This document shows positions 36,603-58,667 of a DNA stretch of 58,667 bases, one piece after another. Under the pieces are notes generated by a model that was not told the DNA's origin, searched no databases, and saw nothing but the letters and a program-made list of their open reading frames with translations. The position numbers were made by a program, and so were the translations under genes. How positions within the stretch are numbered: the stretch's first letter is position 1; each line of letters begins with the position of its first letter. This DNA comes from an uncultured Christensenellaceae bacterium (GTDB taxonomy: Bacteria > Bacillota > Clostridia > Christensenellales > DTU072): positions 1 to 58,667 of the forward strand of contig CAYZOJ010000002.1 in NCBI GenBank assembly GCA_964480195.1, written 5' to 3'.

Positions 36603-36624
36603 TTTAATTTTGTTCGGAGGCTAT

Positions 36625-39147: not shown

Positions 39148-39154
39148 AAACACA

Positions 39155-39229
39155 ATGAAAAAAGGTTTGATTTACAAGCTGGTGCTAGTGATTTTGATAG
39201 CCTCGCTTGCTCTTGTTCTCTTCGCTTGC
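39155..39229 (+). other. Lipoprotein signal peptide with lipobox L-F-A-C (Cys25) of the giant protein
   Basis: MKKGLIYK (basic n-region), LVLVILIASLALVL (h-region), FAC (lipobox), followed by SPREESPTDSD. Confidence 0.8.
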
Positions 39230-42200
39230 TCGCCGAGAGAAGAAAGTCCGACCGATTCCGACGTCATAAGCGGTAACGATTCCGAAGTTGTCGAAGAAAC
39301 GCGCCTCAGGGAGCGTATCAAAGACGATGACGCGAACAAGCTTATACAGACGGGCGTTGACAACAACCTCGAATACTACTCCGCTTCCGATAATCCGGAA
39401 TGGTACATAATCGACATGACGATGGAGTATGAATCCGAGTATTTCTGGCTTGACTCCGAAGAGCTCGAAGACACGAGTTCGGCGTTCCAAATGGAACTCA
39501 AGGCGAATTTCAATCTTAAAGAGAATTCCAAGAGCCAGTTGTACTTGCAGGTTCGTAACGCGAACAGACAACCCGTATTCTGTGTTTACTACGCTTCCGG
39601 CTATACGTATGTAGTCGTCGGAACGCAAAAATACTATACGCCGGAACTCAACTTTACAGAGGTGGGTAAGTTGGTTTACGGAGCGTTGGCAGGTACCGAT
39701 CTCAATTTGGTACAAGCATTGGGCGGTCTTATGTCGGGCGGTTCGACCGGCCTCGAATCTCTCTTAGGTAGCTATGCGAGCTTGCTTACCTTTGTCCCGT
39801 CCCTTATTTACCCTACGGGCAAAACAAACTCTTATTCGACAGTTTACAATTACGACGCCGTATCCGGCAAATATCTCAACCAAGACGTAAGCAGAACGAT
39901 TAAACTCAACGACTTGCTCAATATGCTTTCGGGTAGCGGTATTTCCATTCCCGGCGTATTCTCGATATCTTTCGGAACGATCTGGGACCTTGTCGGACTC
40001 AACCTCGACCCCGTACTCGGACAGTTCCTCGGCTTCACTTTTGAAGATCTCGGCAACAAAGATTGGCCCAAGATGAACGCGTATCTTACCGCGCGCACGG
40101 AACTCGAAACCTTTACCAAGACGGACGACAACGGAATCGAATCCGTGGTTCAGGATTACGTTATGAAGGGTATCGGCATCGAGATCGGAACCACCGGCGA
40201 CGTCGAGCAAACGCGTGAAAAATACGCGGGCTACACGCCTTCCGATATGGCTTCGGGCGAAAAGGTTGAAGAATACAGCATCAATATCGGTCTTACCCCC
40301 ATAATGATGTATGCAAGCGACGAGCCTTTGAGTATCAACTTCGGCGGACTCGGACTTAACGAAAGCGGACGTAAAGACACTTATACCGAAGGCGGTCTCG
40401 GCAACATAGCTCTCGGAGCTACAATGTACGTCGAAAACGACGCCAACGGCAAGATAACCCTCAACTCTATTTTGGGCGAAGCATTCGATTTGAACCTCGG
40501 CGCTCTCGGCGATATGGCAATAGATTTCCCGTACGCCGCTCGTTACGCACTCGGTCTTGACGTAAAAGTCGCTCTCGACTTCTTCGACGCTCAAAAAACT
40601 CAACTCGAATTGACGATATCGTTTAACGATACGCCTCTCATCCGCGCGTTTATAGACGGCACCGACTTGTATCTCAACTTCGACGATATGCAAGCGTATT
40701 CGGGAGCCGTAATCCCCAAACTCAAACTCAGCGGTTTCAGCATAAACGGTATGCTCGGAGGCATACTCGAATCGGCAAGACCGTATCTCGACCCGAACTA
40801 TACTGCGTCTACAATTCAAAATATGTCTTCGTCCGCACGTAACGAAGAGGGCGACGGCACCGAAGAAGGCTCGTCCGTAGACGTCATGGCAATAATCAAG
40901 GTAGTCCTCGACAACCTCGTATTGCCGGGAAGAGGCGACTACCGCGTAGACGCAAACGGCGAAATCGAACGCGACGCGGACGGCAACCCCGTTCCCAACG
41001 ATTGGGTAATATCCCTTAATCTCGACAACAAAGCGTTGACCGAGATATTCGGCATGATTACTCCCGTAAACGGCGATTTGGGCGAAGATCTTTGCATAAA
41101 CCTCTCGTTCGTTCAACAGCTCGAGTTCCTCAGCACGATAGCGCTTAACGTCGATATAACCGATTCCGTAAGACTCGGACTTACGTTCGACAATATCTCC
41201 TACCTCAGCGAACCCGACTGGGATAACTACGAAATGATCGACACCGCGGAAAAACGCGAAGCGTACACCGATATGTCGATATTCAAGACCGGCGAAGACT
41301 ACACCTACGTCAACACCAAGTACAGCGTGTTTATGCAAGGTTCGGTAAATCTCGGTATGAACCAGTCTACCGAAGAGGGTATCGACCTCGGCGGACTCAT
41401 CGGACAGTTCATCGACGGATTGTTGCTTTCCATCAACATCGAAAGAGGCAAGGACCTCAAATTCGAGTACAGATTGGAAGCTAATACCAACCTCCTCGAC
41501 TTATCGACGACAACCCTCAAACTCAGCGTATTCCACACCGATCCTCTTACCAAGAAGGAAACCGTGTACATACGCATATTCTATATGGGCACGGACGATA
41601 CGTTATATATCGACCTCAAAGACCTCAAACTTCTTTCCGACCAAATCAACGGTTTGAGTTCGCTCGGCGACCTGCCTCGTCTTAAATACGAAAATCTCGG
41701 TTTGAAAGACATGCTCCAAGGTCTTGACATAGCCGGCGCGATAAGCGGAATCGTTACGAACGGCGGGCAAAACGCTCCGCGTTCTCTGACGGTTGACACG
41801 TCCGACCCCGATTTCTTGGCCAAAACGCGCGACTCCATAGTCGGATTGCTTTACGCATTCAATACGATTGGCGGTTACGAAGGATTCCTCGGCAATCCCG
41901 CCGAAAGCATCGTCAACGCGTTTAACGCGCTTTACGGCGAAGAGGGCGACGGTTCAGAGGGCGACGGCTCCGAAGGCACCGACGACGGCGGTATCGACAT
42001 TATGGCGATAGTGGCGGCGGCACTCGAAGGCGTTACGATAGACGATATAGCGGGAACACTCTCGATTAACGTCGCGGCGAACGTTTTGAGCGCGGTTATG
42101 ACCATTCTCCTCGCTCCCGTCGACGAGTTCGGTAATCCCGCGACAATAGATATGCCTCTCGTACACGCATATGTCCAACTCAAGTTCATCAATTTCGATT

Positions 42201-45200
42201 TCGATACCGAAGAGCTTCCCGAAGACGGCTATGCGACGATATTCCTTGCCATTCGCGACAGCGGTGACGAAAATCTCGACGCGGTTTACCTCAAAGTCGA
42301 TTTAATCAAGGACCTCGGCGTGCGCGTAGGACATCTCAACCTCTACTCCGACATTTCCGAAACGAACTATACCGGTTCGTTCGAAACGATACAGGAGTTC
42401 CTCGACGGTCTTACCATAGGTCTTCGTATGAAGGGTCATTTCGACTTGACCGTTCAAAACGAGCCTCAATATAAGGTAGACGACTCCGGCGAATACATCC
42501 TCGACGAAAACGGCAATAAGATACCTCTCCTCGACGAAGAGGGCAATATCATATACAAGAAAATCGAAGAGTATACCAACGATTATCTCAACGGAATGCT
42601 TTCGGGTCTTATTTCGGGACTCGGTCTCAAGATAAACACCGCGGACTTTGGCGTTGGCATAGGATTTGAACTCGTTGCCAAGATTTCTCTCGCGGGCGCA
42701 TTGAAGATAGACGGCTCCGAAGCGGCGGATCTCATGGAAGTCTTGCTCGGAAGCTCCGAAATAATGGTTCGTCTTTACGACAGCAGAGAAGAGGACAACC
42801 CCTCGATTGTAGCTATCTACCTTAAAGACGGCAACGTATACGTCGATCTTTCTTACTTCGAAATGCCCAGCATAGGCATAACGGACATTTCCAAGCTCAT
42901 CGACGATATCGGCGATCTTACCGGCTCGAACGCCGCCGACGCGGAAAAGGCTAAGACCGCTCCCGCAAACCTCCTCCACCTCGACAGAGTGGCTCAATAC
43001 GCCAACACCGCAAATCCCGAAGCCGTCGCATTGCAGTTGATGCTCTCGCCCGACGCTTTGACGATTAACCTTACCAAAGACGCGATAGCGAGCCTTATAG
43101 GCTTACTCTTGAATACCGAACTTCCGATTGAAATACAGGATACCAACCTCGAACTCGGATACGGCGACGACGGTATCACGCTCGAACTCGATACCGGTGT
43201 CGAAATATTCAACCTCTCTATGGGCGCAAACGACCTCTTCTTAGCCGTTACGCCCGAAGACCTTGAAAGCCTCGAATTCGAAGTGAACATTCCGTCCGAC
43301 GTAGACTTCTATATGACCGAAGACGGTATGCCGTTAAGCGTATACCTCGAACTCGGCGGTTACCTTGCGATATACAGCGAACCTCTCGAAGATCAAGACG
43401 CCAACATCATCGACTTGGCTCCGGCGCTCAGCGGTATTTTACCCGGTGTGGAACTCAGTGCGCTCATAGAGTTCTTGGGTCTTGTGGACAGCTCGCTGTT
43501 CTTCGATATACGCGCAAGCGTCAATATCAACGAAATAGTTAACATCGTCAATAACGGATTCGATTTTGCCGGAATCGAGCAGACGGCACTCGCAATAACC
43601 TTTAAGACTTACGCGAGCAACGACCCGGGCGATGTGGACGCCAACGGCGAACGCAACAAGAGAAACGTCATCGAACTCTATTATATCGACGGCGACATTT
43701 ACGCATATATGGATACGACGATGATAGAACTTCATCGTATCTACATCCCCGACGCCAACGAAATTCTTGCAGACCTCATCAAGAGCCTTACCGGCGACGA
43801 CGAAATCGTACCCGATGAAGGTCAATCCGAAAGTGACGAGTCCGAAAACGAAACCGCAGTGGCGGTAGAGTACTATCTCGATCTCGTTCTCGGCAAGAAC
43901 GGACTTGCAATCAACATCTCCAAAGCATTCCTTATCGGTGTATTGAACGTCCTCGGACTCGATATATCTTCTTATCTCCAAAGCCTCGACTTCGAAGCGA
44001 GCGTTTCTTTGGATACTCGTCCTCTCGGCGCGGATATCACCCTTAAACTCCGCGATATCGGCACTGACGGCGTAGATGATCCCGATACGGATAACCCCAA
44101 CGACGGCAACTTCGTAAGTATGTCTGTCGGCTTGAACAAGTTAAAGCTCATGCTCGACACCGTTATAACGCTTTCCGAAGAAGAACGCGCCAACTACAGC
44201 CAGGTTATGAATATCGACACGATAGGCGTATCCTTGGGCGGTGCCGCTAAATTCGAAATCGAAGTTCCCGCAGGCGAAGAGGGCGAAGTTTCCGACGAAG
44301 AAACGGGTGCCACCGGCAACGTCCGTTCGCTCACGTTCATAATCAACGAACTTAAAGACATTCTCAAAGAGAATGCGGAAAAAGAAAAGCTCACCTGGAT
44401 ACGCGACGCGTCCATCGGTAAATACGATACCGAAACGGTTAAGTATTCCGAAATGTCCGACGCGCGTCTAAGCGAAATTTACGATTCCGACGTAACCGTT
44501 AAAGACTATACTCAGCTCCTCAACTTCGGTCTTATTCTCGAAGTCATCGGCGATACTTTGGACGGCAAATCCAAGTTCGGCGGTGAAGTATTCTATGAGC
44601 TCGAAGCGATTTTGGATATAACCGACATCTCGAACCTCAAAGCGTCGTTGTTCTTAAGCTCTTCCCAAAAGGCAGAGGATAGGGGCGATATCCTTTGGGT
44701 AAGCATAATGGGCGTTTACGACGAAGTAACGGGCGAATACGACATCAACGTGTTTGCGGATCTTACCAAACTCTTTAACGAAGGTCTTGTAATCAACGAC
44801 GTCATTCGCGTGAACAACTTCTCCGCGTTCTCGGAATATATGGATAGATTTACGAAGGTTACCGCGGGCGCGCAAGCTTCCTATAACGCGAGTATGCCTT
44901 TGAACTCTACCAACAACCTCTTGGAGCTCCCGCACAACGAAGCGGGCGAAGTCGTTCCGAGCATACTTACCGGCGCAAGCATAGTATTGGCGATAACTTC
45001 CGACGCAAGCAAATACGGCGTTCCTTACGAGGCACCCATTGCGTTGGTAGCGCCTTCCGCGGCAATCTACTCTCTCGTAGACTCATTACTCGGCGGTAAC
45101 GACGCGTCTTACGAAGTAGCCGTTGACGAAGAAAAGATCAGCACTTACGTAAACGACGGCATATACTCCGCAGACGAGTATTATTACGCACTCCGCGGAA

Positions 45201-51200: not shown

Positions 51201-54200
51201 TCCAAGACAACATCGGAGAGCTTACCTTGCGTATCAAAGCCGACGTAACTCTTACAGCACTTGACGAGTGGAGCATTAACGCGATGATCCAACTCGTAAG
51301 GCTCAAAGAGGACGGCACATATGAAAACGGCGACGACGTCGACGAAGAAGTATTCGCGCTTTACGTACTCGGCTCTTTGAACAACGCTACGGGCTATGCC
51401 GAAAACGGGCTCCAAGTCTATATGACCATGAGCTCGATGGAGCAATACGGCTTGACGGGCATAATCCTCGACTCCTCGGTATTCGAGAAGTTCTTCAACC
51501 TGAACTTGAACGCCGTACTCGAGTCGTTAGGCGGAACGCTCGCCACGACGATGGACGGCTCCATTATCGCGATGCTCAACAGCCTCATGCAATCGGTAAA
51601 CGGTATTATCGGAAGCATCGGCGGTGACGCGTCGGAAGAAACCGATCCCGAAGGACCCAAGAGTGAAGCAAGCGTTTCGACAGGCGAGGGCACTTCGACC
51701 GAAGGCACCGAAGAAGAGAATCCCTACGCGCCCGACGACGGCGAAGGCGACGAAGACAACGTTGCGTGGTATGCGGGACTCTTTGACAGTATCCAATTCA
51801 CCAAGGGCGCGATTTCGATAGTCATAGCGCAGACGGCTGTACAGACGATACTCGACGAGTTGTTGACCTTCCCGTTCGACGAAAAACTCGGCGAACTCTC
51901 CTTCACGCTCGACAACTACGATAACTCTTTGAAACTCTCGTTCGGTACCGACTATCAAGAGCCTGTCGACATCAGCGACATCGACCTCGATAAGCTCAAG
52001 ATTACCGTCGGCGAAGACGCTGTCGTAAACGACGTCAATAACTACATCGAAGCTCTCGAACGCGACATATTGAAGGTAGCGTCGCCGTTCTTCCTTAGCG
52101 GTGTTACCGTCCAATACGATAACTATAGCGGAATGCTCAACGCAAGTTCGGCATACGTCGGCGACGTCAACAACGCCCAAGTTCTCGGCATTTCCGATAG
52201 CTACGTAAGATACCTCGTTTATGACGCCGAAACGATATTCGGTTCTACCGTAACGAGCCAATCCGAATTGACGCGCAAGCAATACGCGCTCGCGATAATT
52301 GAGGCGATTAACACCCGTCTTAAAGACAGATATACGCTTGTATCTTCCGATTCCGTCAACGGCATTTACGGATTCGAGAATCAAACGTTAAGAGCAAAAG
52401 TCGCGGTTAAACTCTCTGACGAAGACATCAACGTCGAGGGCAATCCTTATAAACAATATAAAGTAATAGTGGCTGTCGCATACGAAAGCTCGAAGCTCGA
52501 TTTGAGCACGGTAGAAGCCGACGTATTCGGCGGTAAACAAGTAAGCCTTACCACCGAAGAAATCGCCACCAACGAAATCAGAGAGCAATACGACGACGAC
52601 TTCCTCGAAGGCATCACCGTACCCGTCGACGACGGCAAGTCCGTTGCGCTCAAGGCGGAAAGCGTTTACGTACAGAAGTTCAAGCTTTATGCGGGACAAG
52701 AGTACGAAGTCGAAAATCCCGGCACGCGTAACGTCTTCTATTACGTATACAACCCGCTCGATTTCTACGATTACGAAGAAACCGGCGACAGATACTCCGA
52801 AATCGCGCTCAAAGAGAAGAAAGCTCTTGCGGAAAAACTCTTATTGGTTATCTCCGACTACTTCCACGAGGGCGAATACACCTGGTCCAAGAGCGCGGAC
52901 GGCGTACACGAACTCTATAAGAGCGACACGCGCTTCAACGTCGCTATCAAGGTTGTAGAAGAGAAGGAAGTCATCGGCGGAACCGAAAGGACTGTCGGTT
53001 ACAAGGTAATAATGGGCACTTCGAGCGACAAGAGTATGTTCAACGTGTATGTCAAGATACACGGACTCGACATCGGTCTCGGCGAAGGCAACATCTTCCA
53101 AGAAATGCCTCTCGGCGGAAAGCTCCGCGACGGCAAGACGGAATACACTATTATTAACGAAGCCGGTGAAGAAGAGATCGTCAAATACGATTATCTCGAC
53201 TACTTCGCAACTCAGTTCATGCCTCTTTCGGACTACAAGTGGGAGTTCGAACTCTACTCCGAACTCACCATCGACGATACCGTAGGCGGAATATTCGATA
53301 TGTCCGACCTTATGGTATTGGTAGGCGGGCTCATAGGCGGGGACATCGGCAATTCGATATCTCAAATCAACTTCGCGTTGCAACCGATAGACGACGTGGC
53401 AATCACGTTCGGTATCGCGGTTCGCGCGTACATTGACTTTGGCGACTTCACTCCCATGCGCTTCCAAGTTGAGCTCACCAACCAAGGTAAGACCGTACTC
53501 CTTCTTACCTACGTAGGCGGTTACGACGTTGACGAAAACGGCATTTACGAAAACAGCAAGCTCTATGTAGACCTCAGCGGTCTCGGATTCCCCTCGGTCA
53601 AACTCGAGCACATCCAGCTTGCCAAGATAGTTAAAGACCTTATGGGCGGTCTCAGCGGAGAAACCGAAGAGAACAAGCCCGAAAACGGCGCAGACAATGG
53701 CGAATCGGGAACCGTAAACGGCAATTCGGGAACCTCTACTCCCGCAAACGCCTCCGCTTCCGACGAACCCGAAAGAATTTACTTAAGCGATAAAGACATC
53801 GACTTCAAGATGTTGCTCTTGACGTTCGGCGAAGAGAATACGAGTATTGCGATAACCGGTGCTCTTCTCTGCTCGCTCATAGGCGCAATCGGTCAGAACG
53901 AAGTCATCTCTTCCGCTCTCGGCGGACTCGACATCGACATCCCGATGTTCCGTAACCTCCAAATCGGTTACTCCAAAGAAGACGGACTCGCGGGTATCAT
54001 CTTACGCCTTACCGACGACACGCCTTACGAAAAGGCAATGCGCATAGGCTTCAACTTCCGCAACGTAAGCGAAAGACCCGACGGATACGGTTCTTACACC
54101 AAGTTCTGGACGGGCGACGAGTCGTCGACCTCGATTGACCCGAGAGAAAATGTCGAAGGCGAAGTCGAAGACGGAATCGCTTACGAGAACATCGACGTTA

Positions 54201-57200
54201 TCACCCAAGTAGGTCTCGGACTCGAAGTCGAAGTTCGCGTACGTACCAAGGACACCGAAAAGTCTTCACAGCTTCTCGCACTCGAAACGTTACTCCAAAA
54301 ACTCCTCGCAAGCTCGGGAATGCTCCCGGACAGCGAAGGCGTCATCAACCTCGATGTACAGAACACAATGCTCGTGTTCACATTGGGACTTAACGTATAT
54401 ACCGACCTTTCCGACCTCACCAAGACCACGCTTGCGTTGAACTTGGGACTCTCCGGCGAAGATCTCCTTGCGATATACTTCCTCGGAAGCACCAACACCG
54501 TATACGCGGATCTCAGCGGACTCGGATTCTTCAAGGCGGCGATAAACGGTATTGACCTTATAGGCATACTCAACACCTTCCTTGGCGGATTCTTGGGCGA
54601 CGAGGGCTTGGAAGTCGGCAAGATGCTTGCAGGTCTTGTATCCGGCATAACGGGCGCTTCTCAAGCGTCGGTCAACGCGACGAGCACCAATTACGTATCG
54701 ACGTCCGAAACCGTCGAAGCTCCGCGTAACGCCGCAATCGACCTCGTAACGTCGACGGATAACCCGCTCCTCAAGATACTCATATCCAACGAAGAACTCA
54801 TCATCAACCCGAACGTGGCAATCCTTTCGAGCCTGCTCGGCGATTCGATGACTCTTCCCAAGATAACGGATATGCGTCTCGGCATCAACCTCTATCAAGG
54901 TTTCAACAACCTCAACATCAAGGTAAAACTCGACCACAAGGGCAACTATCTCAATATGGCTGTTCCGGAAGGCGGGTTGCAAATCGAAATAGGCAAGACC
55001 GCGGAACGCCTTAAACTCTACACCATAGGCGACGAATCCACTTACGGCGGTATCGTAGGTATCTCGATGGGTCTTGACTCGGCGGGATCGCTCTCCGCGG
55101 GTATTGACGCATTGACGCTCGCGCAGGGCATTTTGGACGTCATCGACCTTAAGAACTTTGCGATTTACCTCGAAAAGCGTAACGACTACTTCTTCATTCG
55201 TAACCTTGCTTACAAGGTAACGACGGGTAACTTCTCGTTCGACTATTTCGGAACCTCTTACAGCACCGGTCCTACCGTATTCTCGACTCAGTTCGATAAC
55301 AGATTCATCAACTCCAAGACCGGACTCGATCCGTACGACGACGCGTACGTATCCACCGGACAGCTCTTCAGCTTGTCGATAGGTTCTTGGGACGTAGGTC
55401 AATACGCAAAAGCGTACGAGCCGATATTCTTCGACAACGCGTACAGAAGACTTGCAATCTACGCGACCAAGGACGTTCGCAACGTAACCGACCTCGAGAT
55501 AAGACAGCTTACGCAAGTAGGTAACGTCGAGTCTTACGCAGATCAGACAGACTGGGAGCCGATGGGTCTTAACGCGTACATTAAAGACAACGTCTTGAAG
55601 CTCTCGCTTGACAACATCGTCGTCATCGACTTGAGCGGACTTATTCAGCAGATTTTGAGTTGGATTATTTCCGCTGTCGGTAACGCTATCGGCGGTGGCG
55701 TCGCGGGAACCATAATCAATGCTGTTTGGGGCGTTGCGGGCGACGCTGTATCCACGTGGATTGCAGACCTCCTCGGCGACTTCAGCATAACGATAGGCGG
55801 TGTCGAATACGGACACTACGGCAACCCGCTCAAAGTAGGTAAGCTCGTCACCGACATACTCTCGGGCGGAGATCCGACATACGGCTTCGGCGTTGTAAAT
55901 ATGTATCTCCCGGAATTCCTGCCTTCGCTCATTTCGAGCCTCAGGGCAAGTTCGTTCGAAGATACCAACAGCTACGGCTCTATGTACGGTAACGTCAACC
56001 ACTACAACAAGGCGACCGGCGAGTACGAACCCGTCGCGGGCGCTAAGGTTGTTCTCGGAAACGACCAATACGTAACGTACACCGACTCGGACGGCGATTA
56101 CAGCTTCATCAACGTTGCAATCGGCACGTACAACGTAAAGATTACTTGCGACGGATACAACACCTTACCGAGAGTCGGTCAGGCAAGCCCGCAAGCGACC
56201 GTTTACGCGTACTACGACAAGCCCGCAATGGAAGCGAACTACACCCTCGAAGAGTACGAAACCGGCACTTGGACAAACGTAACCCTCAAGGGTCAAGTCA
56301 AGTACGAGTCCTCTAAGGGCGTATACACGATTCTCAAGGGCGTGGATGTCGAAATCGAGAACCACGGTGTTTGGATTACAGTCGGAACCACCGATTCCGA
56401 AGGTAACTATTCGGGAACGCTTACGACCAACCTCGTAGGTTCCTACCACAATATGAGAGTTGCAAGCGGTATCGCTCACATCGGAACGATAACTTCGTCG
56501 GTGACCCTCAAATACACCGCGGACGGTTTGTCGATGGTAAAAGACTACACCGTCAACATTACCTATAACATTCCGTCGCCCGACGCTACGGTAACCGCAA
56601 CGCTCAAGACGTTGGATCTTACCGAAACGCTTCTCAACGGACAAGCGTCGACCGTATACAATAACTACGCGCGTCGCGATACCGAAGATACGTCTTTCGA
56701 CTCCACAGCCGTTTACAGTTATCAGAACGCCGGCACCATCGTCGGTAGCAAGGTAGACAAAGACCTCGTTCAAAACAAACTCGGCGGAACGGCAGTCGCC
56801 GCATACACCGAAAACGATACCGTTTACAACGTATACGAGTTCGAAACGGTAGCCGCGATGAAGAGCGGTATCTCCGCATTCGTAACCGCGATTAAGGAAT
56901 TGTCCTACACCCAAAACGAGACAAAATACGCGCTCTACGACGTAACCGAAGAAATCGGCTCGCTCTACTACCGCGCGACTTCTTATCAAGAACGCAACAT
57001 TACCGAAATTCGCGGATTCGCGTCGCAATACAAAGACGGCAAGTTCTGCTATCGCGTAATCGTTGCTCGCAGACAAGCGACTCTCGTCGCGGTCGACTTC
57101 TCCGCACTCGAAGTATGGCTCGAAAGGGACGGCAGAACGATACGTAATTCCGACTCGTTCTCGGGAACCAACCTCAACGTCATCAGCATCTACAAGGACG

Positions 57201-58667
57201 ACGCAGTCGAAGAAACTCGTACCGCATACGCTCAACAAACGGCGAGAAACTACTTAACCACCGTCATCGGCGCAAGCGATAACGAAGTTCAGGGCGGTGA
57301 AGCGTACAACGCCAACACAGGTAAGATAACCATAACCAAGCTTGCAAAAGCCGATTACATCGTAAAGGTTCGCGCAACGGGTTATGAAAACGTAGAAATC
57401 GGCACGGCGAAGATTACCGATAAGGATTACTACTGGGATCTCGGCGAAATCATTCTCGAACCCAAGCGCGTACCCGCGTGGATAGCCGAAGAAAACGAGG
57501 GCACCAAGATGCTCCAAGGCTTGCGCGTACGTTTGGGCGCAGACATCCTCGACGAGTCCAGTACCGGTCATAACTCCGCGGAAGACGCGGGCTACACTGA
57601 GGACGGCGTACCGCTCAGCAAGTACTCCTTCTTGACGAGCCTCGGCGAAGGCACTCTTAACGCACTTCTCCATACCGCTACCGGTCAGGCGAGCAGTGCG
57701 ATAGGTAACGCTATAGGTAACGCGATAGGCGGTACCATCGGAAGCCTCGTAGGCAGTGCGGCAAGCAGTATACTCGGAAGCTTGTTCGGTAACATCGGCG
57801 GTGTGGACAGCACTTCGCAGTTTCTCGACGCAACCGGCAAACCGATATTCGTTCCGTGGACCAACTACGTCAACGGATACGAAGAGGGCGATAAGAACTC
57901 CTCCGACACCGTAACGTATATCGAAGCGTGGATTTCTTCCGACCTTATCAGCGATATAGTATTCTTAATCAACAACCTCCTTATGGACTACACCGGTTAC
58001 GGCAAAGTTTCTAAGGATCAGCGTTACACCTCGGCAGACCTCTCCAAGATACCCGACGGCACGGATGACGACGATGTATTGAAGCTCAACTTCAAGGGCG
58101 AATTCAGCGAAGAGCTCGATCACCTCTGGGGTAACTACATCTACGATACCCAATCCGACTACACCGAAATCTTGTACGAATCCGGCGGTAGATTCATAGG
58201 CAATATAGTATCGTTCTTGCTCGGCTCCTTCATATCCCTCTCCGATACGTGGATGAACATCATCCAGATGGTTCTCTACGAAATCGACGCGGTTATGGAT
58301 ATTCTCGACCAAGTAACCAGACTCCTTTCGCACATCTTCCCGTTCACCACGGGCTACTCGATGATTATTGATAAGGATCTCCCGGGCAGCCCGCTCGCAC
58401 AACAGACGGTCTACTCGACGGTTTGGGAACACGAAACGCAGTACGGCTATATGGATATGGAAAAGAAGACCGTTCGTCCCAACGCCATAACCAGCTCGTC
58501 GCGCGAATTGTACGAACCCAAGTTTGACGAAAGCATACTCGGCACCGTCAATGCGGGTCAAAGCCAATATAACTATAAGATTAACGACGTAACCGTTTCG
58601 TCCGATAACCCGCTCGGCAAGATAGTCGGACAGCGCTCGACCGACGTCAAAGACCTCGTACAAAACG
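39155..58667 (+). CDS. Giant open reading frame, 3'-partial: at least 6,504 codons, running off the window end. Acidic, modular, lipobox-anchored surface protein of unrecognised family
   Basis: Not in the supplied ORF track. I read the frame (pos-39155) mod 3 = 0 codon by codon from ATG 39155 to 58667 and met no TAA/TAG/TGA. The length is 19,513 nt, i.e. 6,504 codons plus 1 nt. The track lists no plus-strand ORF in this frame anywhere in 19.5 kb, which is what a finder that needs a closing stop would produce. All long minus-strand ORFs here share the exact mirror frame, meaning (end-39155) mod 3 = 2 for 39764..41338, 42302..42997, 45086..45733, 48965..49975, 52841..53611, 54290..56068, 56165..57238 and 57965..58663. 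The N-terminus is MKKGLIYKLVLVILIASLALVLFAC. Confidence 0.92.
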   Translation, partial: MKKGLIYKLVLVILIASLALVLFACSPREESPTDSDVISGNDSEVVEETRLRERIKDDDANKLIQTGVDNNLEYYSASDNPEWYIIDMTMEYESEYFWLDSEELEDTSSAFQMELKANFNLKENSKSQLYLQVRNANRQPVFCVYYASGYTYVVVGTQKYYTPELNFTEVGKLVYGALAGTDLNLVQALGGLMSGGSTGLESLLGSYASLLTFVPSLIYPTGKTNSYSTVYNYDAVSGKYLNQDVSRTIKLNDLLNMLSGSGISIPGVFSISFGTIWDLVGLNLDPVLGQFLGFTFEDLGNKDWPKMNAYLTARTELETFTKTDDNGIESVVQDYVMKGIGIEIGTTGDVEQTREKYAGYTPSDMASGEKVEEYSINIGLTPIMMYASDEPLSINFGGLGLNESGRKDTYTEGGLGNIALGATMYVENDANGKITLNSILGEAFDLNLGALGDMAIDFPYAARYALGLDVKVALDFFDAQKTQLELTISFNDTPLIRAFIDGTDLYLNFDDMQAYSGAVIPKLKLSGFSINGMLGGILESARPYLDPNYTASTIQNMSSSARNEEGDGTEEGSSVDVMAIIKVVLDNLVLPGRGDYRVDANGEIERDADGNPVPNDWVISLNLDNKALTEIFGMITPVNGDLGEDLCINLSFVQQLEFLSTIALNVDITDSVRLGLTFDNISYLSEPDWDNYEMIDTAEKREAYTDMSIFKTGEDYTYVNTKYSVFMQGSVNLGMNQSTEEGIDLGGLIGQFIDGLLLSINIERGKDLKFEYRLEANTNLLDLSTTTLKLSVFHTDPLTKKETVYIRIFYMGTDDTLYIDLKDLKLLSDQINGLSSLGDLPRLKYENLGLKDMLQGLDIAGAISGIVTNGGQNAPRSLTVDTSDPDFLAKTRDSIVGLLYAFNTIGGYEGFLGNPAESIVNAFNALYGEEGDGSEGDGSEGTDDGGIDIMAIVAAALEGVTIDDIAGTLSINVAANVLSAVMTILLAPVDEFGNPATIDMPLVHAYVQLKFINFDFDTEELPEDGYATIFLAIRDSGDENLDAVYLKVDLIKDLGVRVGHLNLYSDISETNYTGSFETIQEFLDGLTIGLRMKGHFDLTVQNEPQYKVDDSGEYILDENGNKIPLLDEEGNIIYKKIEEYTNDYLNGMLSGLISGLGLKINTADFGVGIGFELVAKISLAGALKIDGSEAADLMEVLLGSSEIMVRLYDSREEDNPSIVAIYLKDGNVYVDLSYFEMPSIGITDISKLIDDIGDLTGSNAADAEKAKTAPANLLHLDRVAQYANTANPEAVALQLMLSPDALTINLTKDAIASLIGLLLNTELPIEIQDTNLELGYGDDGITLELDTGVEIFNLSMGANDLFLAVTPEDLESLEFEVNIPSDVDFYMTEDGMPLSVYLELGGYLAIYSEPLEDQDANIIDLAPALSGILPGVELSALIEFLGLVDSSLFFDIRASVNINEIVNIVNNGFDFAGIEQTALAITFKTYASNDPGDVDANGERNKRNVIELYYIDGDIYAYMDTTMIELHRIYIPDANEILADLIKSLTGDDEIVPDEGQSESDESENETAVAVEYYLDLVLGKNGLAINISKAFLIGVLNVLGLDISSYLQSLDFEASVSLDTRPLGADITLKLRDIGTDGVDDPDTDNPNDGNFVSMSVGLNKLKLMLDTVITLSEEERANYSQVMNIDTIGVSLGGAAKFEIEVPAGEEGEVSDEETGATGNVRSLTFIINELKDILKENAEKEKLTWIRDASIGKYDTETVKYSEMSDARLSEIYDSDVTVKDYTQLLNFGLILEVIGDTLDGKSKFGGEVFYELEAILDITDISNLKASLFLSSSQKAEDRGDILWVSIMGVYDEVTGEYDINVFADLTKLFNEGLVINDVIRVNNFSAFSEYMDRFTKVTAGAQASYNASMPLNSTNNLLELPHNEAGEVVPSILTGASIVLAITSDASKYGVPYEAPIALVAPSAAIYSLVDSLLGGNDASYEVAVDEEKISTYVNDGIYSADEYYYALRGIYATHIETLATARVNGEISEDTYVTVNHLWSSNVKDALDELYAKGDSVIAQYDATVATFVNEYAKIFTDADVAGRILPNATEEELSVLETAYNAFDAFYTEKLKPAVAEPKDPDDEQKTNLIKGLRAIRIEEIESQKDSMSVANYEYLLHGMLTTLEGEQVDPADYGNIDVSTFFGVHSPSLLLEIGAASIPNADGGTRSAFLLVNMSLAELLTVQFEIGSINVTISPDDSYYTGTVDEYGTLQGGLLNNKNYYWLNPDKMADQHIVISLNGELDFDAEDTSDGSDTEAKTAIDLTEIIQTLLTEADFGAMIRNAGLNPTKLTYELSVNVNLHDILKTIATGDIYWLLVRSELLLSLGFSGEREYYDEETGAYLGTHDSTEYISLYYVDGDAYIDGSVIGVQRVRVNTALANLFDFIGMGDIRDYYKPTPEEYEKTDASFDPQNYPLNAPLTGTELLPYVRLAMGNQTGIVLDIMSEVIFCVLSGLDLGESFPVEDLGETVRNTLNGDLNFQLGIMSKLGLLADKWPSENRDILALALNVGNYTLGMRLSELSLDLMDETETATVSLKPKEMNLDSYELSENLDNVYAELSLDFNLDGTNGTKFNLDETVDGILSRFGINDDGSVNSTVETIRGLGLEPIIQLLSTLSNHYTLEIKGNINLSEIIDENTFYDTNFSVYLRDRDTLIDYSDGNGEVYKEVFSAHYIDRALYINAECFNIQAVRIDTFWDFVMHDLKDIYFPETDEEPEEGDGDETEEVQNATGFAGYESKSGFDPLSLLRQVASGEANKVAAYINITASPEGFALSIGTTVLFAVLRAIGGEAMDFSSYVEPIGELTVEAVLFGPEELLGLGLTFEGYAFSGDERINTGTEEEPVYQKDGSNISISFGIRNDFKVAFNNTWLADKYYINRDKFYTGEFTSDDVTVSHVTVDNTISAPAYAYIDDGNGGYEAIDYTAVDLTNPVIGLETVIYIDLGAGKITGDGVTGTVSREYDENGELSGIHYSGYDLNKEPLTSLLAGILDATLAILLEIDSNQSVTYELELLVNFPLRNFRGIEVQLTLSGLYNEKYYRQLFRANLHNSNLYVDLTALNGPKFSVEAVLETILGEKEFEDDVISGLIDSIFGGGSSDEETPQNASGAQNASSAKTDTPINIDLGVERLIRGVMTHGLALYVTEAAVNSILRMFSMSDLEIFETLLVEIGLAAKKNSFIFALDLEATAEYYDENNTSQSSKVIDLGLGIDGLRLNFEGFPNTELLLPQTANYMRAAEVNTLTLSTAIEIEVGVNGGTLNLNGLYQEVLREDGAIAGLLGDDDSFDSLFGNNGLMTALPQLVMLGDVGDTLVFQIDGMVYIKGGLEGIIDNLQLRLEIYSKKCREKFDIVFTYYKNQLYGDFSSIGMGKVFIDDVNFLLDWFGGLGGSDEETEAQSASLTETERVANAFAKQFPTWAQALGLNNASSDENLVGIVKILLGNDDGLLITVTFEMIDVILKMVGLDIGLEDYLAGVLNPSATVGVIPGPAYEIGIHLDTASSTIPNWSWDEEAQEYRQDSEPKKDENGEYVENNGGLDLALRLMGGDTSIGIENESLVYTPYGIQSTLTPLISEEERSAYKMFNEVALTLGTNFALQFDLSDGKIQLNALLDTIFTILGMEMPEDYETNIIFNGGNETLYCEINLRVGLDLAKLLSANSEDITHAITLELIVQYTIIDNVTDEVYMNQKLIELYMFDDIIYAGLNIMDTELGVKVPDMGLSATLRGLMEKLFIVDKVEDDVTTGGGEEGGNPQNASSNPIKDMYESTKDTVGDTPVGNLMTPMIYLNSQGFALMLTKTLLIECIDAVIDIAGGAIGTQDGEPIILDREQLEFIAEQILDYVTLGFYFDPDEEGNMSIKLNLTKEAGEEQIEETKEWYDSVGYSITLSLFHDSIMTVSTETYDERLDYLRYDEEHVRYYDNCLDTRNIAWRVNLGIDLSIGTDIQQYILNWSSLFQNEMDEDGNVTGAAFYIQALQDNIGELTLRIKADVTLTALDEWSINAMIQLVRLKEDGTYENGDDVDEEVFALYVLGSLNNATGYAENGLQVYMTMSSMEQYGLTGIILDSSVFEKFFNLNLNAVLESLGGTLATTMDGSIIAMLNSLMQSVNGIIGSIGGDASEETDPEGPKSEASVSTGEGTSTEGTEEENPYAPDDGEGDEDNVAWYAGLFDSIQFTKGAISIVIAQTAVQTILDELLTFPFDEKLGELSFTLDNYDNSLKLSFGTDYQEPVDISDIDLDKLKITVGEDAVVNDVNNYIEALERDILKVASPFFLSGVTVQYDNYSGMLNASSAYVGDVNNAQVLGISDSYVRYLVYDAETIFGSTVTSQSELTRKQYALAIIEAINTRLKDRYTLVSSDSVNGIYGFENQTLRAKVAVKLSDEDINVEGNPYKQYKVIVAVAYESSKLDLSTVEADVFGGKQVSLTTEEIATNEIREQYDDDFLEGITVPVDDGKSVALKAESVYVQKFKLYAGQEYEVENPGTRNVFYYVYNPLDFYDYEETGDRYSEIALKEKKALAEKLLLVISDYFHEGEYTWSKSADGVHELYKSDTRFNVAIKVVEEKEVIGGTERTVGYKVIMGTSSDKSMFNVYVKIHGLDIGLGEGNIFQEMPLGGKLRDGKTEYTIINEAGEEEIVKYDYLDYFATQFMPLSDYKWEFELYSELTIDDTVGGIFDMSDLMVLVGGLIGGDIGNSISQINFALQPIDDVAITFGIAVRAYIDFGDFTPMRFQVELTNQGKTVLLLTYVGGYDVDENGIYENSKLYVDLSGLGFPSVKLEHIQLAKIVKDLMGGLSGETEENKPENGADNGESGTVNGNSGTSTPANASASDEPERIYLSDKDIDFKMLLLTFGEENTSIAITGALLCSLIGAIGQNEVISSALGGLDIDIPMFRNLQIGYSKEDGLAGIILRLTDDTPYEKAMRIGFNFRNVSERPDGYGSYTKFWTGDESSTSIDPRENVEGEVEDGIAYENIDVITQVGLGLEVEVRVRTKDTEKSSQLLALETLLQKLLASSGMLPDSEGVINLDVQNTMLVFTLGLNVYTDLSDLTKTTLALNLGLSGEDLLAIYFLGSTNTVYADLSGLGFFKAAINGIDLIGILNTFLGGFLGDEGLEVGKMLAGLVSGITGASQASVNATSTNYVSTSETVEAPRNAAIDLVTSTDNPLLKILISNEELIINPNVAILSSLLGDSMTLPKITDMRLGINLYQGFNNLNIKVKLDHKGNYLNMAVPEGGLQIEIGKTAERLKLYTIGDESTYGGIVGISMGLDSAGSLSAGIDALTLAQGILDVIDLKNFAIYLEKRNDYFFIRNLAYKVTTGNFSFDYFGTSYSTGPTVFSTQFDNRFINSKTGLDPYDDAYVSTGQLFSLSIGSWDVGQYAKAYEPIFFDNAYRRLAIYATKDVRNVTDLEIRQLTQVGNVESYADQTDWEPMGLNAYIKDNVLKLSLDNIVVIDLSGLIQQILSWIISAVGNAIGGGVAGTIINAVWGVAGDAVSTWIADLLGDFSITIGGVEYGHYGNPLKVGKLVTDILSGGDPTYGFGVVNMYLPEFLPSLISSLRASSFEDTNSYGSMYGNVNHYNKATGEYEPVAGAKVVLGNDQYVTYTDSDGDYSFINVAIGTYNVKITCDGYNTLPRVGQASPQATVYAYYDKPAMEANYTLEEYETGTWTNVTLKGQVKYESSKGVYTILKGVDVEIENHGVWITVGTTDSEGNYSGTLTTNLVGSYHNMRVASGIAHIGTITSSVTLKYTADGLSMVKDYTVNITYNIPSPDATVTATLKTLDLTETLLNGQASTVYNNYARRDTEDTSFDSTAVYSYQNAGTIVGSKVDKDLVQNKLGGTAVAAYTENDTVYNVYEFETVAAMKSGISAFVTAIKELSYTQNETKYALYDVTEEIGSLYYRATSYQERNITEIRGFASQYKDGKFCYRVIVARRQATLVAVDFSALEVWLERDGRTIRNSDSFSGTNLNVISIYKDDAVEETRTAYAQQTARNYLTTVIGASDNEVQGGEAYNANTGKITITKLAKADYIVKVRATGYENVEIGTAKITDKDYYWDLGEIILEPKRVPAWIAEENEGTKMLQGLRVRLGADILDESSTGHNSAEDAGYTEDGVPLSKYSFLTSLGEGTLNALLHTATGQASSAIGNAIGNAIGGTIGSLVGSAASSILGSLFGNIGGVDSTSQFLDATGKPIFVPWTNYVNGYEEGDKNSSDTVTYIEAWISSDLISDIVFLINNLLMDYTGYGKVSKDQRYTSADLSKIPDGTDDDDVLKLNFKGEFSEELDHLWGNYIYDTQSDYTEILYESGGRFIGNIVSFLLGSFISLSDTWMNIIQMVLYEIDAVMDILDQVTRLLSHIFPFTTGYSMIIDKDLPGSPLAQQTVYSTVWEHETQYGYMDMEKKTVRPNAITSSSRELYEPKFDESILGTVNAGQSQYNYKINDVTVSSDNPLGKIVGQRSTDVKDLVQN
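40637..54529 (+). repeat. About 13 divergent protein-level modules (300-400 aa each) inside the giant ORF, each ending in a conserved two-strand hairpin motif of the type [hydrophobic]-x-(L/I/F)-Y-(Y/F/I/V)-x-(D/G)-(G/D/N)-x-(L/V/I)-Y-(V/I/A)-(D/G)-(L/F)
   Basis: Motif instances: 40637..40684 LIRAFIDGTDLYLNFD; 41564..41617 VYIRIFYMGTDDTLYIDL; 42806..42850 IVAIYLKDGNVYVDL; 43667..43714 VIELYYIDGDIYAYMD; 44690..44764 ILWVSIMGVYDEVTGEYDINVFADL; 46343..46387 YISLYYVDGDAYIDG; 47294..47341 VFSAHYIDRALYINAE; 48413..48457 LFRANLHNSNLYVDL; 49331..49372 IVFTYYKNQLYGDF; 50348..50395 LIELYMFDDIIYAGLN; 51350..51430 VFALYVLGSLNNATGYAENGLQVYMTM; 53495..53590 VLLLTYVGGYDVDENGIYENSKLYVDLSGLGF; 54464..54529 LLAIYFLGSTNTVYADLSGLGF. 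There is no nucleotide-level repeat identity. Confidence 0.65.
55658..55780 (+). other. Glycine-zipper-like hydrophobic segment 1 in the giant protein
   Basis: SWIISAVGNAIGGGVAGTIINAVWGVAGDAVSTWIADLLGD: small-xxx-small periodicity, Gly/Ala-rich and otherwise apolar. Confidence 0.45.
55982..56161 (+). other. CarboxypepD_reg-like (prealbumin-fold) domain 1 in the giant protein
   Basis: MYGNVNHYNKATGEYEPVAGAKVVLGNDQYVTYTDSDGDYSFINVAIGTYNVKITCDGYN fits the classic pattern G.V......P..GA.V.L.....T.TD.DG.Y.F.....G.Y.....GY. Confidence 0.7.
56285..56425 (+). other. CarboxypepD_reg-like domain 2 (weaker)
   Basis: LKGQVKYESSKGVYTILKGVDVEIENHGVWITVGTTDSEGNYSGTLT. Confidence 0.45.
57263..57463 (+). 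other. CarboxypepD_reg-like domain 3 (weaker)
   Basis: VIGASDNEVQGGEAYNANTGKITITKLAKADYIVKVRATGYENVEIGTAKITDKDYYWDLGEIILEP. Confidence 0.45.
57683..57802 (+). other. Glycine-zipper-like segment 2 in the giant protein
   Basis: GQASSAIGNAIGNAIGGTIGSLVGSAASSILGSLFGNIGG: repeated (A/G)IGN and GxxxG/S spacing. Confidence 0.5.

Follow-up and report, generated by a model that had tools for sequence, protein, structure and literature searches.

The window analysed here, a stretch of 58,667 nucleotides, contains a plus-strand frame that starts at ATG 39155 and is still open at the last base. This raises the question of whether the frame is a gene, and what kind of protein such a gene would encode.

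The open frame and its start region

The frame and the signals around its start are located as follows.

38821..38844, + strand: terminator-like hairpin ending the upstream unit (10-bp stem with 6 G-C pairs, then a T run)
39013..39041, + strand: sigma-70-type promoter TTGACA-17-TAAAAT of the giant gene (11 of 12 positions match)
39047..39078, + strand: 14-bp GC-rich hairpin at the 5' end of the leader, between promoter and ATG
39142..39147, + strand: ribosome-binding site AAGGAG, 7 nt 5' of the ATG
39155..58667, + strand: 5' part of the giant gene (6,504 codons, open at the window end)
39155..39229, + strand: lipoprotein signal peptide (MKKG...LVLFA then C; Cys25), conserved in all orthologues

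The giant gene is a real gene, and the initial annotation was confirmed on this point. Translation of 39155-58666 gave no in-frame stop in 6,504 codons; a single TAA, TAG or TGA, named in that annotation as evidence against the gene, was searched for codon by codon and none was found. The closest in-frame stop on the 5' side of the ATG is a TAA at 39113. Over the same stretch the two other plus-strand frames contain 327 and 213 stops, and the probability of 6,504 stop-free codons, calculated from base composition, is about 1e-130. The proposal that codon usage is native agrees with the relative synonymous codon usage, which correlates with that of 14 other genes of the window at r=0.89 (0.27 and -0.21 for the off-frames). 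Uncultured Clostridia of at least nine lineages carry orthologues, in which the frame is open and colinear at 25-50% identity, and in five MAG loci it is open over 5,800-5,900 codons at 41-50% identity. Among orthologues dN/dS is 0.13-0.15 and even along the gene (5,800 codons).

The gene had been suspected of being repeat-rich and therefore prone to assembly collapse. This concern was not borne out: no DNA repeat within the 19.5 kb exceeds 37 nt, so that collapse is unlikely. A Logan contig (SRR10277277) that takes in the first 3.5 kb of the gene is 100% identical across 14,685 bp. The gene is missing from the mechanical ORF list because that list drops ORFs running off the source, in line with the earlier explanation that a closing stop was wanting. 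In its place the list shows long 'shadow' ORFs on the antisense strand, which reach 592 aa.

A non-functional frame, i.e., a chance ORF, a chimeric assembly or a decaying pseudogene, would fit the facts that no stop codon falls within the window and that the gene is often broken in public assemblies. These breaks are contradicted by six intact copies, and the negligible chance of such an open frame, the low dN/dS, the nine colinear lineages, the native codon usage and the lack of DNA repeats all argue against this explanation, which is effectively refuted.

The start region contains each of the signals that had been proposed for it, including the terminator closing the upstream operon, which lies 3' of the PIG-L gene. 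Six orthologous loci keep the promoter in place as TTGACA ... TA[GA]AAT. The leader hairpin had escaped the initial description. The leader folds at -43.6 kcal/mol (z -6.5), and three other loci (L002, L007 and L009) have hairpin-forming stretches at the equivalent position that differ in sequence. An Rfam search of the leader gave no credible match; the hairpin may be an mRNA stabiliser or attenuator.

The signal sequence, MKKGLIYKLVLVILIASLALVLFA-C, fits a positively charged n-region, a hydrophobic h-region and a lipobox of the form [LVIM]-x-[GAS]-C. These elements are conserved in orthologues and divergent members, with the Cys invariant in a four-sequence alignment and lipobox variants LFAC, IVAC, IAAC, LLSC, LVGC, MFAC, VVAC and LIGC. 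The lipoprotein call was made by reading the motif; the lipobox Cys is present in all members, and the earlier assignment stands. A hydropathy scan showed no transmembrane-like segment besides the signal peptide. The strongly acidic, Cys-poor protein is thus predicted to be exported by the Sec/SPII route and tethered via its N-terminal lipobox Cys.

Architecture of the encoded protein

The following parts of the protein were delimited.

39464..55354, + strand: body of 14 diverged alpha/beta super-repeat units (hhalign tile against tile; iterated module HMM)
42608..43810, + strand: unit 4 and the next core module, aa 1152-1552, the segment modelled with AlphaFold2
51980..53368, + strand: insertion in unit 12, a duplicated domain at aa ~4276-4451 and ~4446-4738 (HMM)
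56027..56167, + strand: best CarboxypepD_reg (prealbumin-like beta-sandwich) match, aa 5625-5671 (Pfam PF13620)
57449..58411, + strand: family-specific 'junction' domain, aa 6099-6419 (eight-lineage alignment with invariant residues)
57680..57799, + strand: glycine-zipper-like hydrophobic insertion in the junction domain, aa 6176-6215 (some lineages only)

Most of the protein could be placed in no known family. Divided into eight 650-aa tiles, aa 1-5200 matched no Pfam family at E<0.03, and NCBIfam gave none for the body. Known adhesin repeats (Big_1-4, Cadherin-like, FIVAR, Rib, SdrD_B, LRR) do not build aa 1-5200, and neither do RCC1, dockerin, YG or Listeria-Bacteroides repeats. Adhesin, lectin, enzyme and toxin domains were not identified in the giant protein, nor were helicase or SecA matches. 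Sequence and profile searches of the PDB with the whole protein, aa 5000-5780 and the junction domain yielded a beta-sandwich match only. In all, about 85% of the window part, and most of the full-length relatives too, has no known family or solved fold. The claim that the bulk of the protein belongs to no nameable family thus holds, with Pfam, NCBIfam and PDB matching small beta-sandwich domains only. Full-length homology to a characterised giant adhesin family, which had been named as evidence against novelty, was looked for and not found.

The repeats of the body are visible only by profile-profile comparison and with an iterated HMM; self-BLASTP of the window protein detected no internal repeats. 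The ~110-aa core modules begin at aa 104, 455, 758, 1163, 1437, 1802 and 2335 (modules 1-7) and at aa 2656, 3041, 3345, 3681, 4012, 4741 and 5064 (modules 8-14). The module HMM matches the window protein 13-14 times and each of seven full-length relatives exactly 14 times; unit length ranges from ~235 to 730 aa while unit number stays constant. A core module consists of about five predicted strands followed by a helix, with alternating hydrophobic positions, and modules are spaced ~250-350 aa apart with helix-rich segments between them. The alignment of units is well occupied along its entire length, and secondary structure is continuous from unit to unit. Unit 12 is the longest and most variable of the family; an HMM seeded on aa 4400-4738 retrieves the second copy of its insertion at aa 4276-4451. 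At the protein level, the gene product is a tandem array of 14 ancient, strongly diverged units.

For structure prediction, alignments of a unit plus the next module were poor when long-insert units were included, and restriction to compact units solved this. AlphaFold2, given 73 aligned sequences of paralogous and orthologous units, modelled aa 1152-1552 as mixed strands and helices (pLDDT 78.4, pTM 0.60). A model of aa 27-1150 based on a six-row alignment had a pLDDT of 36 and was discarded. Foldseek searches with the modelled unit gave no match at E<=1e-3 in PDB or BFVD.

The units contain exposed loops at a fixed place that are enriched about 4-fold in the dipeptides AP, AA, QN and NA. The motif P-x-N-A occurs five times in the window protein (0.8 expected) and nine times in the orthologue P0039 (1.3 expected), and 13 of these 14 occurrences fall 105-142 aa past a module start. 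In the modelled unit, the loop matching the P-x-N-A site has a pLDDT below 50. Strict P-x-N-A was rejected as a universal feature: it is lineage-specific and nearly absent from P0070, P0076 and P0078. A role of the loops as N-glycosylation sequons was also rejected, with N-A-S/T found in the window lineage only and N-A-P/E/G in P0039.

Domains that can be recognised lie solely near the distal end, as was initially noted. Hmmscan found three CarboxypepD_reg stretches in aa 5401-6504, of which the one at aa 5625-5671 is the strongest (E 1e-11; 45.4 bits against a gathering cut-off of 32.3). The distal beta-sandwiches also include Big_1 and Big_4 matches, and a profile of the CarboxypepD_reg region matches a cellulosomal scaffoldin chain in the PDB (E 6e-5). 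The junction domain that follows carries the motifs R-I/V-R-L-G-A-D, Y-I-E-A-W and LDQVTRLLSHIFPF. It had no match in the PDB, and its profile retrieved only two further fragments from 5.8 billion proteins, both of the same family. Its glycine-zipper insertion has a weak Pfam Gly-zipper_Omp match (E 0.27) and is absent from P0070, P0074, P0076 and P0078. Beyond the position of the window end, relatives carry another 2,300-3,100 aa made up of cryptic repeats about as long as an Ig domain (70-100 aa). Family members align colinearly over this C-terminal third (28-36% identity), and their last residues look alike by eye.

Full length and distribution of the family

The window protein aligns with residues 2-6578 of P0039, which belongs to the closest fully recovered lineage (~38% identity) and has a corrected length of 9,596 aa. 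The P0039 entry itself has 7,835 aa; six other assemblies show it joined by a 32-aa linker to the ORF that follows, and the composite has 9,596 aa. The stop after residue 7,835 was therefore rejected as a frameshift artefact of one public assembly, and the apparent 1,749-aa downstream gene as a part of the same ORF. By this comparison, ~3,000 codons (~9 kb) of the giant gene probably lie beyond the window, which would hold an estimated ~68% of a CDS of ~9,500 codons in a gene of ~28-29 kb. Divergent full-length relatives have 7,125-7,879 aa and a C-terminal motif that is similar as judged by eye (...V-x-[LIV]-x-[IV]-V...). Scans of genome contigs with the last 1,200 aa of the window protein and of metagenome contigs with a profile of aa 5000-5780 gave no match by which the contig could be extended.

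Defined by a lipobox, 14 core modules, CarboxypepD_reg and the junction domain (RIRLGAD ... YIEAW ... SHxxPF), the family comprises 47 detectable proteins, mostly fragments, among 1.84 billion cluster representatives; searches with queries of 1,500 and 3,000 aa found only five cluster representatives. The window protein has all four elements within its 6,504 residues. All carriers are uncultured, mostly gut-derived Clostridia, the one named source being a chicken-faeces MAG, and the label in NCBI is 'hypothetical protein, partial'. Literature searches found no account of a 14-unit giant lipoprotein family. These proteins of Clostridia form a new, rare and previously undescribed family.

Gene neighbourhood and possible function

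The genes of the upstream unit bear on the possible function of the giant protein.

32794..35760, + strand: transglutaminase-like lipoprotein, 988 aa (Pfam Transglut_core E 5e-12, Big_2 E 2e-5)
35763..36602, + strand: 279-aa cytoplasmic mutarotase-like protein (NCBIfam NF052227 E 3.8e-53, below the equivalog cut-off)
36610..37953, + strand: ROK-family sugar-kinase-like protein (Pfam ROK E 3.6e-6; position kept in seven related loci)
37964..38770, + strand: PIG-L/LmbE-family deacetylase, the last gene of the upstream unit (Pfam PIG-L E 1e-18)

The 988-aa lipoprotein, the first gene product of this conserved block, has its own lipobox (LIGC), a Big_2 Ig domain and a C-terminal Transglut_core; its match to the NCBIfam MAG6410-family transglutaminase-related lipoprotein is weak, partial and far below cut-off. 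A transglutaminase-like gene lies upstream of the giant gene in L009, L010, L011, L013, L014, L015 and L017; L012, whose contig ends within the gene call, probably has it too. The mutarotase-like protein is a relative of the TTE1925 family with a weak Pfam DUF4380 match (E 2e-4), and a ~280-aa gene occupies the same position in L009, L010, L011, L012, L013, L014 and L017. The PIG-L protein has weak BshB1/BshB2 matches, far below cut-off. The block is directly upstream in eight of nine lineages despite differing outer flanks. Because L016 lacks it, the link to the giant gene may be mere genome colinearity. Furthermore, the giant gene has its own promoter and is set apart from the block by the terminator of the upstream unit.

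On balance, we slightly favour the view that the window holds two-thirds of a gene for a lipoprotein of ~9,500 aa that forms a lipid-anchored surface fibre of fixed length, acting as an adhesin or spacer. The giant chain would cross the cell wall from its N-terminal lipid anchor and hold the distal binding array off the cell, and trimming, release or cross-linking of the fibre may be the task of the extracellular transglutaminase-like lipoprotein conserved along with it. The term fibre rests on tandem-repeat logic and not on a multi-unit model, since the fold of the unit had no match. In favour of a fibre are the constancy of unit number against varying unit length, the mixed alpha/beta model of the unit and the acidic, Cys-poor composition, and in favour of a distal array the beta-sandwich matches and the cryptic C-terminal repeats. 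Adhesin stalks normally vary in repeat number, so that the fixed number found here counts against the fibre reading.

Several other functions were considered. An envelope scaffold or molecular ruler, in which the protein, by itself or after cross-linking through the adjacent transglutaminase-like lipoprotein, makes an S-layer- or sheath-like layer or spacer of defined thickness outside the membrane, would account for the 14 units kept in all eight full-length lineages despite their low identity and large length differences. The evenness of purifying selection over the whole length, the co-conservation of the lipoprotein and the composition of the exposed loops also point this way. However, Pfam searches found no SLH, CWB or other wall-binding domains, the distal third resembles an array of beta-sandwiches, an arrangement that suits binding more than lattice formation, and the loop motif varies at its Gln; we consider a scaffold rather unlikely. 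The loops could instead be cleavage sites of a polyprotein precursor, cut at A-P-x-N-A-type sequences into unit-sized pieces that act apart or assemble, with the neighbouring transglutaminase-like protein possibly serving as the cutting cysteine protease. The excess of P-x-N-A in two lineages, its placement after module starts, the low confidence of the modelled loop and the conserved papain-like (Transglut_core) lipoprotein gene next door fit such processing. The near absence of the strict motif from three relatives does not, nor does the continuous secondary structure between units, and the strictly conserved order and number of units fit a single covalent chain better, making a polyprotein improbable.

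The strand-helix core with its alternating hydrophobic positions, recurring cryptically over thousands of residues, recalls repeating beta-groove proteins such as VPS13, AsmA and TamB, and hence a bridge-like conduit for lipids or other hydrophobic cargo. This is very improbable. AsmA, AsmA_2, TamB (DUF490) and Chorein_N had no sequence match in the giant protein, the fold test covering the PDB with one modelled unit. Pfam searches over 73 units gave no recurrent match to AsmA, TamB, Chorein or any other family, no lipid-transfer protein is among the best 50 of the 474 weak PDB matches from Foldseek, and helix-rich segments separate the widely spaced modules. Moreover, the gene order cysS, mini-RNase III, rlmB and then a sigma factor, which occurs in the window, is typical of Firmicutes, and the host is presumably monoderm, so that a second membrane to be bridged would be lacking. 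A protein that delivers toxins or effectors on cell contact, like polymorphic toxins, is hardly credible: a giant secreted protein with a glycine-zipper-like segment (aa 6180-6215) and a weak DUF637-like match (E 0.034, near aa 5500-5550) would suit it, but the colinear C-terminal third is not polymorphic, no Rhs/YD, FHA, pre-toxin, other toxin or immunity-gene signature rose above noise, and half of the lineages lack the zipper.

Several known proteins offer a comparison. Staphylococcus aureus Ebh (~10,000 aa) is a giant fibrillar surface protein of Gram-positives; stalks of its type have many near-identical short repeats in variable number and a C-terminal membrane-segment anchor. The present protein resembles Ebh in being a very acidic, membrane-tethered, secreted Firmicute protein of ~1 MDa that is probably rod- or fibre-like and made of tandem modules, but it differs in its 14 ancient, position-specific units of 250-700 aa, its N-terminal lipid anchor and the lack of repeats at the DNA level. 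The Pfam and NCBIfam searches of the giant protein gave no relation to Ebh. In Pseudomonas, the giant adhesin LapA is controlled by the transglutaminase-like cysteine protease LapG, which cleaves it at a defined N-terminal site. Here too, a giant surface protein is paired, by gene neighbourhood, with an extracytoplasmic protein of the transglutaminase-like superfamily, and by analogy the release or processing of the giant protein could fall to this lipoprotein. On the other hand, LapA leaves its diderm host through a type I system and has Ig-like repeats, and LapG belongs to a different transglutaminase-like subfamily from the 988-aa lipoprotein with its Big_2 and Transglut_core domains. AsmA-like bridge proteins (VPS13, ATG2, TamB, YhdP) share great length, repeats seen only with profiles, and about five strands plus a helix; the units here are ~3 times longer, contain several helices and have no recurrent Pfam match (73 units searched). 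With CarboxypepD_reg/SdrD-B/SpaA surface proteins there is true Pfam membership at aa 5625-5671 and neighbouring stretches, but such domains make up <5% of the giant protein and indicate merely an extracellular beta-sandwich.

Metagenomic proteins of >30,000 aa, up to 85,804 aa, have been reported (bioRxiv 10.1101/2023.11.21.568195), so that ranking the present protein among the largest of bacteria was an overstatement. The giant genes of West-Roberts et al., from Omnitrophota and others, encode many transmembrane segments and often SecA-DEAD-like domains, and those of gut Clostridia encode RCC1, Listeria-Bacteroides repeat, YG-repeat or dockerin domains (bioRxiv 10.1101/2023.11.21.568195). 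Like the Omnitrophota-type genes, the gene described here is metagenome-derived, mostly unannotated, fragmented in assemblies and proposed to act at the cell surface; unlike them, its product has a signal peptide as the sole transmembrane-like segment and lacks the domains listed above.

The locus shows that one gene of ~29 kb is held by purifying selection across lineages that are only 25-50% identical. ORF callers that require a stop miss it and list antisense shadow ORFs in its place, and frameshift splits in public assemblies cause the size and prevalence of the family to be underestimated. A bolder reading, possible but not probable, is that the body is both a new fold and an extracellular ruler whose unit number sets a distance or layer thickness, a single chain of ~1 MDa that would be matured by the transglutaminase-like lipoprotein through cleavage or isopeptide cross-linking at the A-P-x-N-A loops. 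If true, this would be an envelope organelle without a described counterpart, rather than another adhesin. The giant protein probably shapes the contact of these cells with their surroundings.

The open frame and its expression signals

Translation of the plus strand confirmed the unbroken frame that the initial annotation had proposed from ATG 39155: positions 39155-58666 can be read as 6,504 sense codons without interruption, while the remaining two plus-strand frames contain 327 and 213 stops over this stretch. Given the base composition, a run of 6,504 codons would lack a stop by chance with a probability of about 1e-130. The closest in-frame stop upstream lies at 39113. As pointed out previously, the gene is absent from the ORF list, which omits ORFs running off the source. 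The list includes many long antisense ORFs inside the giant gene (39185-58663, minus strand), which are most likely shadow ORFs, among them the following.

54290-56068, minus strand: antisense ORF of 592 aa, the longest listed for the giant-gene stretch
39764-41338, minus strand: antisense ORF of 524 aa
56165-57238, minus strand: antisense ORF of 357 aa

If a gene caller left out the open-ended giant frame, it would annotate these shadow ORFs instead. The three expression signals noticed earlier were all located.

38821-38844: terminator-like hairpin, 3' of the gene upstream of the giant gene
39013-39041, plus strand: promoter TTGACA-17-TAAAAT, conserved in orthologous loci
7 nt 5' of ATG 39155, plus strand: AAGGAG ribosome-binding site

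The giant gene is probably transcribed independently. Its 5' leader (39042-39160) begins with a 14-bp GC-rich hairpin (39047-39078), after which comes a U-rich stretch; the leader as a whole is far more stable than shuffled sequences (-43.6 kcal/mol, z -6.5). In the leaders of three related loci (L002, L007 and L009), a hairpin of different sequence occupies the same position past the conserved promoter. The hairpin could be a 5' stabiliser of the ~29-kb mRNA or an attenuator.

Codon usage, claimed to be native, indeed matches that of 14 other window genes (RSCU r = 0.89; 0.27 and -0.21 for the off-frames). The 19.5 kb are free of DNA repeats above 37 nt in length, so that repeat collapse in the assembly, the earlier worry, is unlikely; with such corrections, the interpretation given in the initial annotation is supported overall. 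Over 14,685 bp, the window is matched without any difference by a Logan contig (run SRR10277277), which stops inside the giant gene at codon 1,164.

Conservation and full length of the family

With the first 1,500 aa of the window protein as query, only three homologues, all fragmentary, were found among 5.8 billion proteins. Scanning the GTDB representative genomes with a profile gave seven loci, every one in uncultured Clostridia/Eubacteriales MAGs. Five of the loci had enough DNA for the frame to be followed, and in all of them it continues without a stop up to where the retrieved sequence ends (5,800-5,900 codons); their products align colinearly with the window protein over 5,800 residues, with 41-50% identity. 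The two closest orthologue pairs have dN/dS values of 0.13 and 0.15, with 0.07 to 0.25 in all 500-codon bins, and therefore purifying selection acts along the whole length. The giant gene is conserved and native.

When 1.84 billion cluster representatives were searched exhaustively with HMMER, using an N-terminal profile, no more than 47 proteins were returned, six of which are divergent full-length members of 7,125-7,879 aa, each with a lipobox at its start. No relatives were detectable outside this small family; the sole extra-family match in the exhaustive search (P0105, 1,671 aa, E 7e-6) arose because of the acidic D-x-[DN]-G-x-x-[IV]-P type repeats of which that protein is full. Short repeats of this type occur in the window protein at aa 1098-1140 (~nt 42446-42574) and aa 590-615 ('LDENGNKIPLLDEEGNIIY', 'DANGEIERDADGNPVPND'), and their sequence resembles calcium-binding loops. 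NCBI labels the family only as hypothetical protein, and we found no paper describing it. Giant bacterial cell-surface proteins are a known category; the family itself is new.

The full length was deduced from P0039, an orthologue from the closest fully recovered lineage, which was found among cluster members of the first matches. P0039 has 7,835 aa on a 146-kb contig, and a 1,749-aa ORF starts 40 nt further on; the two frames overlap by ~60 nt (locus L011, 33440-33560). Six further assemblies from its 90% cluster read through without a break from P0039 residue 7,827 via a 32-aa linker into the 1,749-aa ORF. The stop in the P0039 contig is therefore a frameshift artefact, the composite protein has 9,596 aa, and termination after residue 7,835 with a separate 1,749-aa gene is contradicted by the six continuous copies. 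By eye, the last residues of the six divergent members are similar to the end of the 1,749-aa ORF. In the alignment with P0039, the window protein covers residues 2-6578, so that ~3,000 codons are expected past the window, and by this alignment the full protein should have ~9,500 aa, encoded by 28-29 kb of DNA with the stop beyond the window.

Public assemblies also break the giant gene elsewhere through apparent frameshifts. Two frames overlap by ~60 nt in locus L001 (7573-7634), as in the P0039 contig, and in the related locus L004 the frame is open well beyond the equivalent point. Many cluster members are pieces of 1-3 kaa although their contigs exceed 100 kb.

Architecture of the giant protein

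The ~9,500-aa product starts with a lipoprotein signal and further comprises 14 alpha/beta units in tandem, domains of beta-sandwich type and a distal region that is conserved. The following features lie in the window protein.

aa 1-25: lipoprotein signal peptide, Cys kept in every family member
aa 104, 455, 758, 1163, 1437, 1802, 2335: starts of modules 1-7
aa 2656, 3041, 3345, 3681, 4012, 4741, 5064: starts of modules 8-14
Unit 12: lineage-variable insertion holding an internally duplicated domain
~aa 5625-5800 and further downstream: CarboxypepD_reg (prealbumin-like) beta-sandwiches
aa 6099-6419: family-specific junction domain with invariant RxRxGAD and YxExW and hydrophobic helices

Self-BLAST detected no internal repeats in the window protein; they were revealed by profile-profile comparison of 250-aa tiles, and an iterated HMM of a ~110-aa module matches 14 times. 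The module is predicted to contain about five strands and then a helix, with the consensus ...LSLELELEIEANLDL...ELQLTLN...ILSVYYVDGTLYLDLS.LGLPKIKI.... All seven other full-length proteins tested gave exactly 14 matches, with unit lengths from about 235 up to 730 aa in full-length relatives. Whole-unit alignment showed that the 150-200 aa between modules are likewise homologous, and the body thus consists of 14 ancient, position-specific super-repeats.

AlphaFold modeling of aa 27-1150 with six sequences gave a pLDDT of 36. For a unit model (window aa 1152-1552), 73 'unit plus next module' segments, paralogous and orthologous, from eight lineages were aligned, giving a mean pLDDT of 78.4 and a pTM of 0.60, with 308 of 401 residues at a pLDDT of at least 70. 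The predicted fold is mixed alpha/beta, with antiparallel strand groups and helices after each; the loops that come after the modules were modeled with low confidence. In Foldseek searches, neither PDB nor BFVD gave a match at E <= 1e-3; the top PDB match had an E of 0.056 and a TM of about 0.1, and the weak matches were unrelated alpha/beta proteins (hot-dog dehydratases, PCNA, MHC II, Pur-alpha). The bulk had been described as matching no nameable family; no Pfam match recurred among the 73 units and NCBIfam and PDB sequence searches were empty. Compared with solved structures and viral models only, the modeled fold has no known match and is possibly new.

In the window protein, AP, AA, QN and NA dipeptides are enriched ~4-fold in low-confidence exposed loops ~90-150 aa past module starts, e.g., 'EETPQNASGAQNASS' at aa 3140-3160 and 'TPANASAS' at aa 4860-4870. 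P-x-N-A motifs number five in the window protein (0.8 expected) and nine in P0039 (1.3 expected); 13 of the 14 lie 105-142 aa past a module start, and three divergent lineages have almost none. They are candidate sites for processing or cross-linking.

Both the signal peptide and the recognisable distal domains had been read correctly beforehand, the CarboxypepD_reg beta-sandwiches being the sole parts of the window protein above a Pfam threshold. A hydropathy scan showed no further transmembrane-like segment. The protein is very acidic (D+E 15.7%, K+R 6.4%) and has 12 Cys per 6,504 residues. A glycine-zipper-like insertion in the junction domain occurs in only half of the lineages. Past the window, the C-terminal third of relatives comprises 2,300-3,100 residues that are colinear across the family and not polymorphic; these residues contain cryptic repeats of 70-100 aa and match Big_1 and Big_4 here and there, a pattern that fits an array of diverged beta-sandwich domains.

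Gene neighbourhood and proposed function

A four-gene block (32794-38770) lies immediately upstream of the giant gene.

Transglutaminase-like protein: 988 aa, own lipobox, Big_2 domain
Mutarotase-like protein: 279 aa
ROK-family protein
PIG-L deacetylase

Of nine lineages examined, eight have this block (transglutaminase-like, ~280-aa, ROK and, in most cases, PIG-L genes) in front of the giant gene and one lacks it. It is kept in members only about 25-35% identical and at loci with different outer flanks. Because the giant gene has its own promoter and a terminator intervenes, the link is a conserved neighbourhood, not a shown operon. The block is an odd mix of an extracellular lipoprotein and three cytoplasmic sugar-metabolism-like proteins. 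Farther upstream (26039-32623, minus strand) are cysS, mini-RNase III, a SpoU/RlmB-type methylase, a sigma-70-family factor and YchF, also found beside the cluster in L009, L013 and L015. We take the cysS/mini-RNase III/SpoU methylase/sigma-factor order to be a typical Firmicutes arrangement; this block helps to place the organism and is otherwise ordinary. Immediately downstream of the giant gene, two divergent lineages (L013, 32004-38144; L015, 33726-39866) encode a protein of 2,046 aa that combines RCC1/WD40_RLD with Big_2/Big_3 domains. Downstream in L014 are unannotated genes of 516 aa and 2,140 aa. Such neighbours suggest a surface-protein island.

The chain would be Sec-exported and lipidated and would remain anchored on the outside of the membrane; its 14 units would build a long stalk of constant length across the wall, and the distal beta-sandwich array would serve to bind some component of the gut environment. 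LapG acts on LapA, and by analogy the transglutaminase-like lipoprotein may trim, release or cross-link the giant protein. Such a fibre, serving as adhesin or spacer, is the reading we lean toward, with somewhat better than even confidence. An envelope scaffold or ruler is rather unlikely, kept alive by the constant unit number, the oddest feature of the family; a more unusual reading, an envelope 'ruler' of set length matured by an enzyme of its own, is likewise unlikely. We regard a processed polyprotein as improbable and a bridge-like conduit as quite improbable, whereas a toxin-delivery protein seems highly improbable and a gene without function hardly credible.

Unlike Ebh-type and LapA-type adhesins, the giant protein has an N-terminal lipid anchor, large non-identical units of fixed number and no recognisable stalk repeat. 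It also differs from the Omnitrophota-type giant proteins and from the Clostridia ones described in West-Roberts et al. (bioRxiv 10.1101/2023.11.21.568195), which carry RCC1, dockerin or other known repeats, or many transmembrane segments, in having neither. With a function that we infer from architecture alone, the giant gene represents a large, conserved and uncharacterised family that possibly has a new fold.
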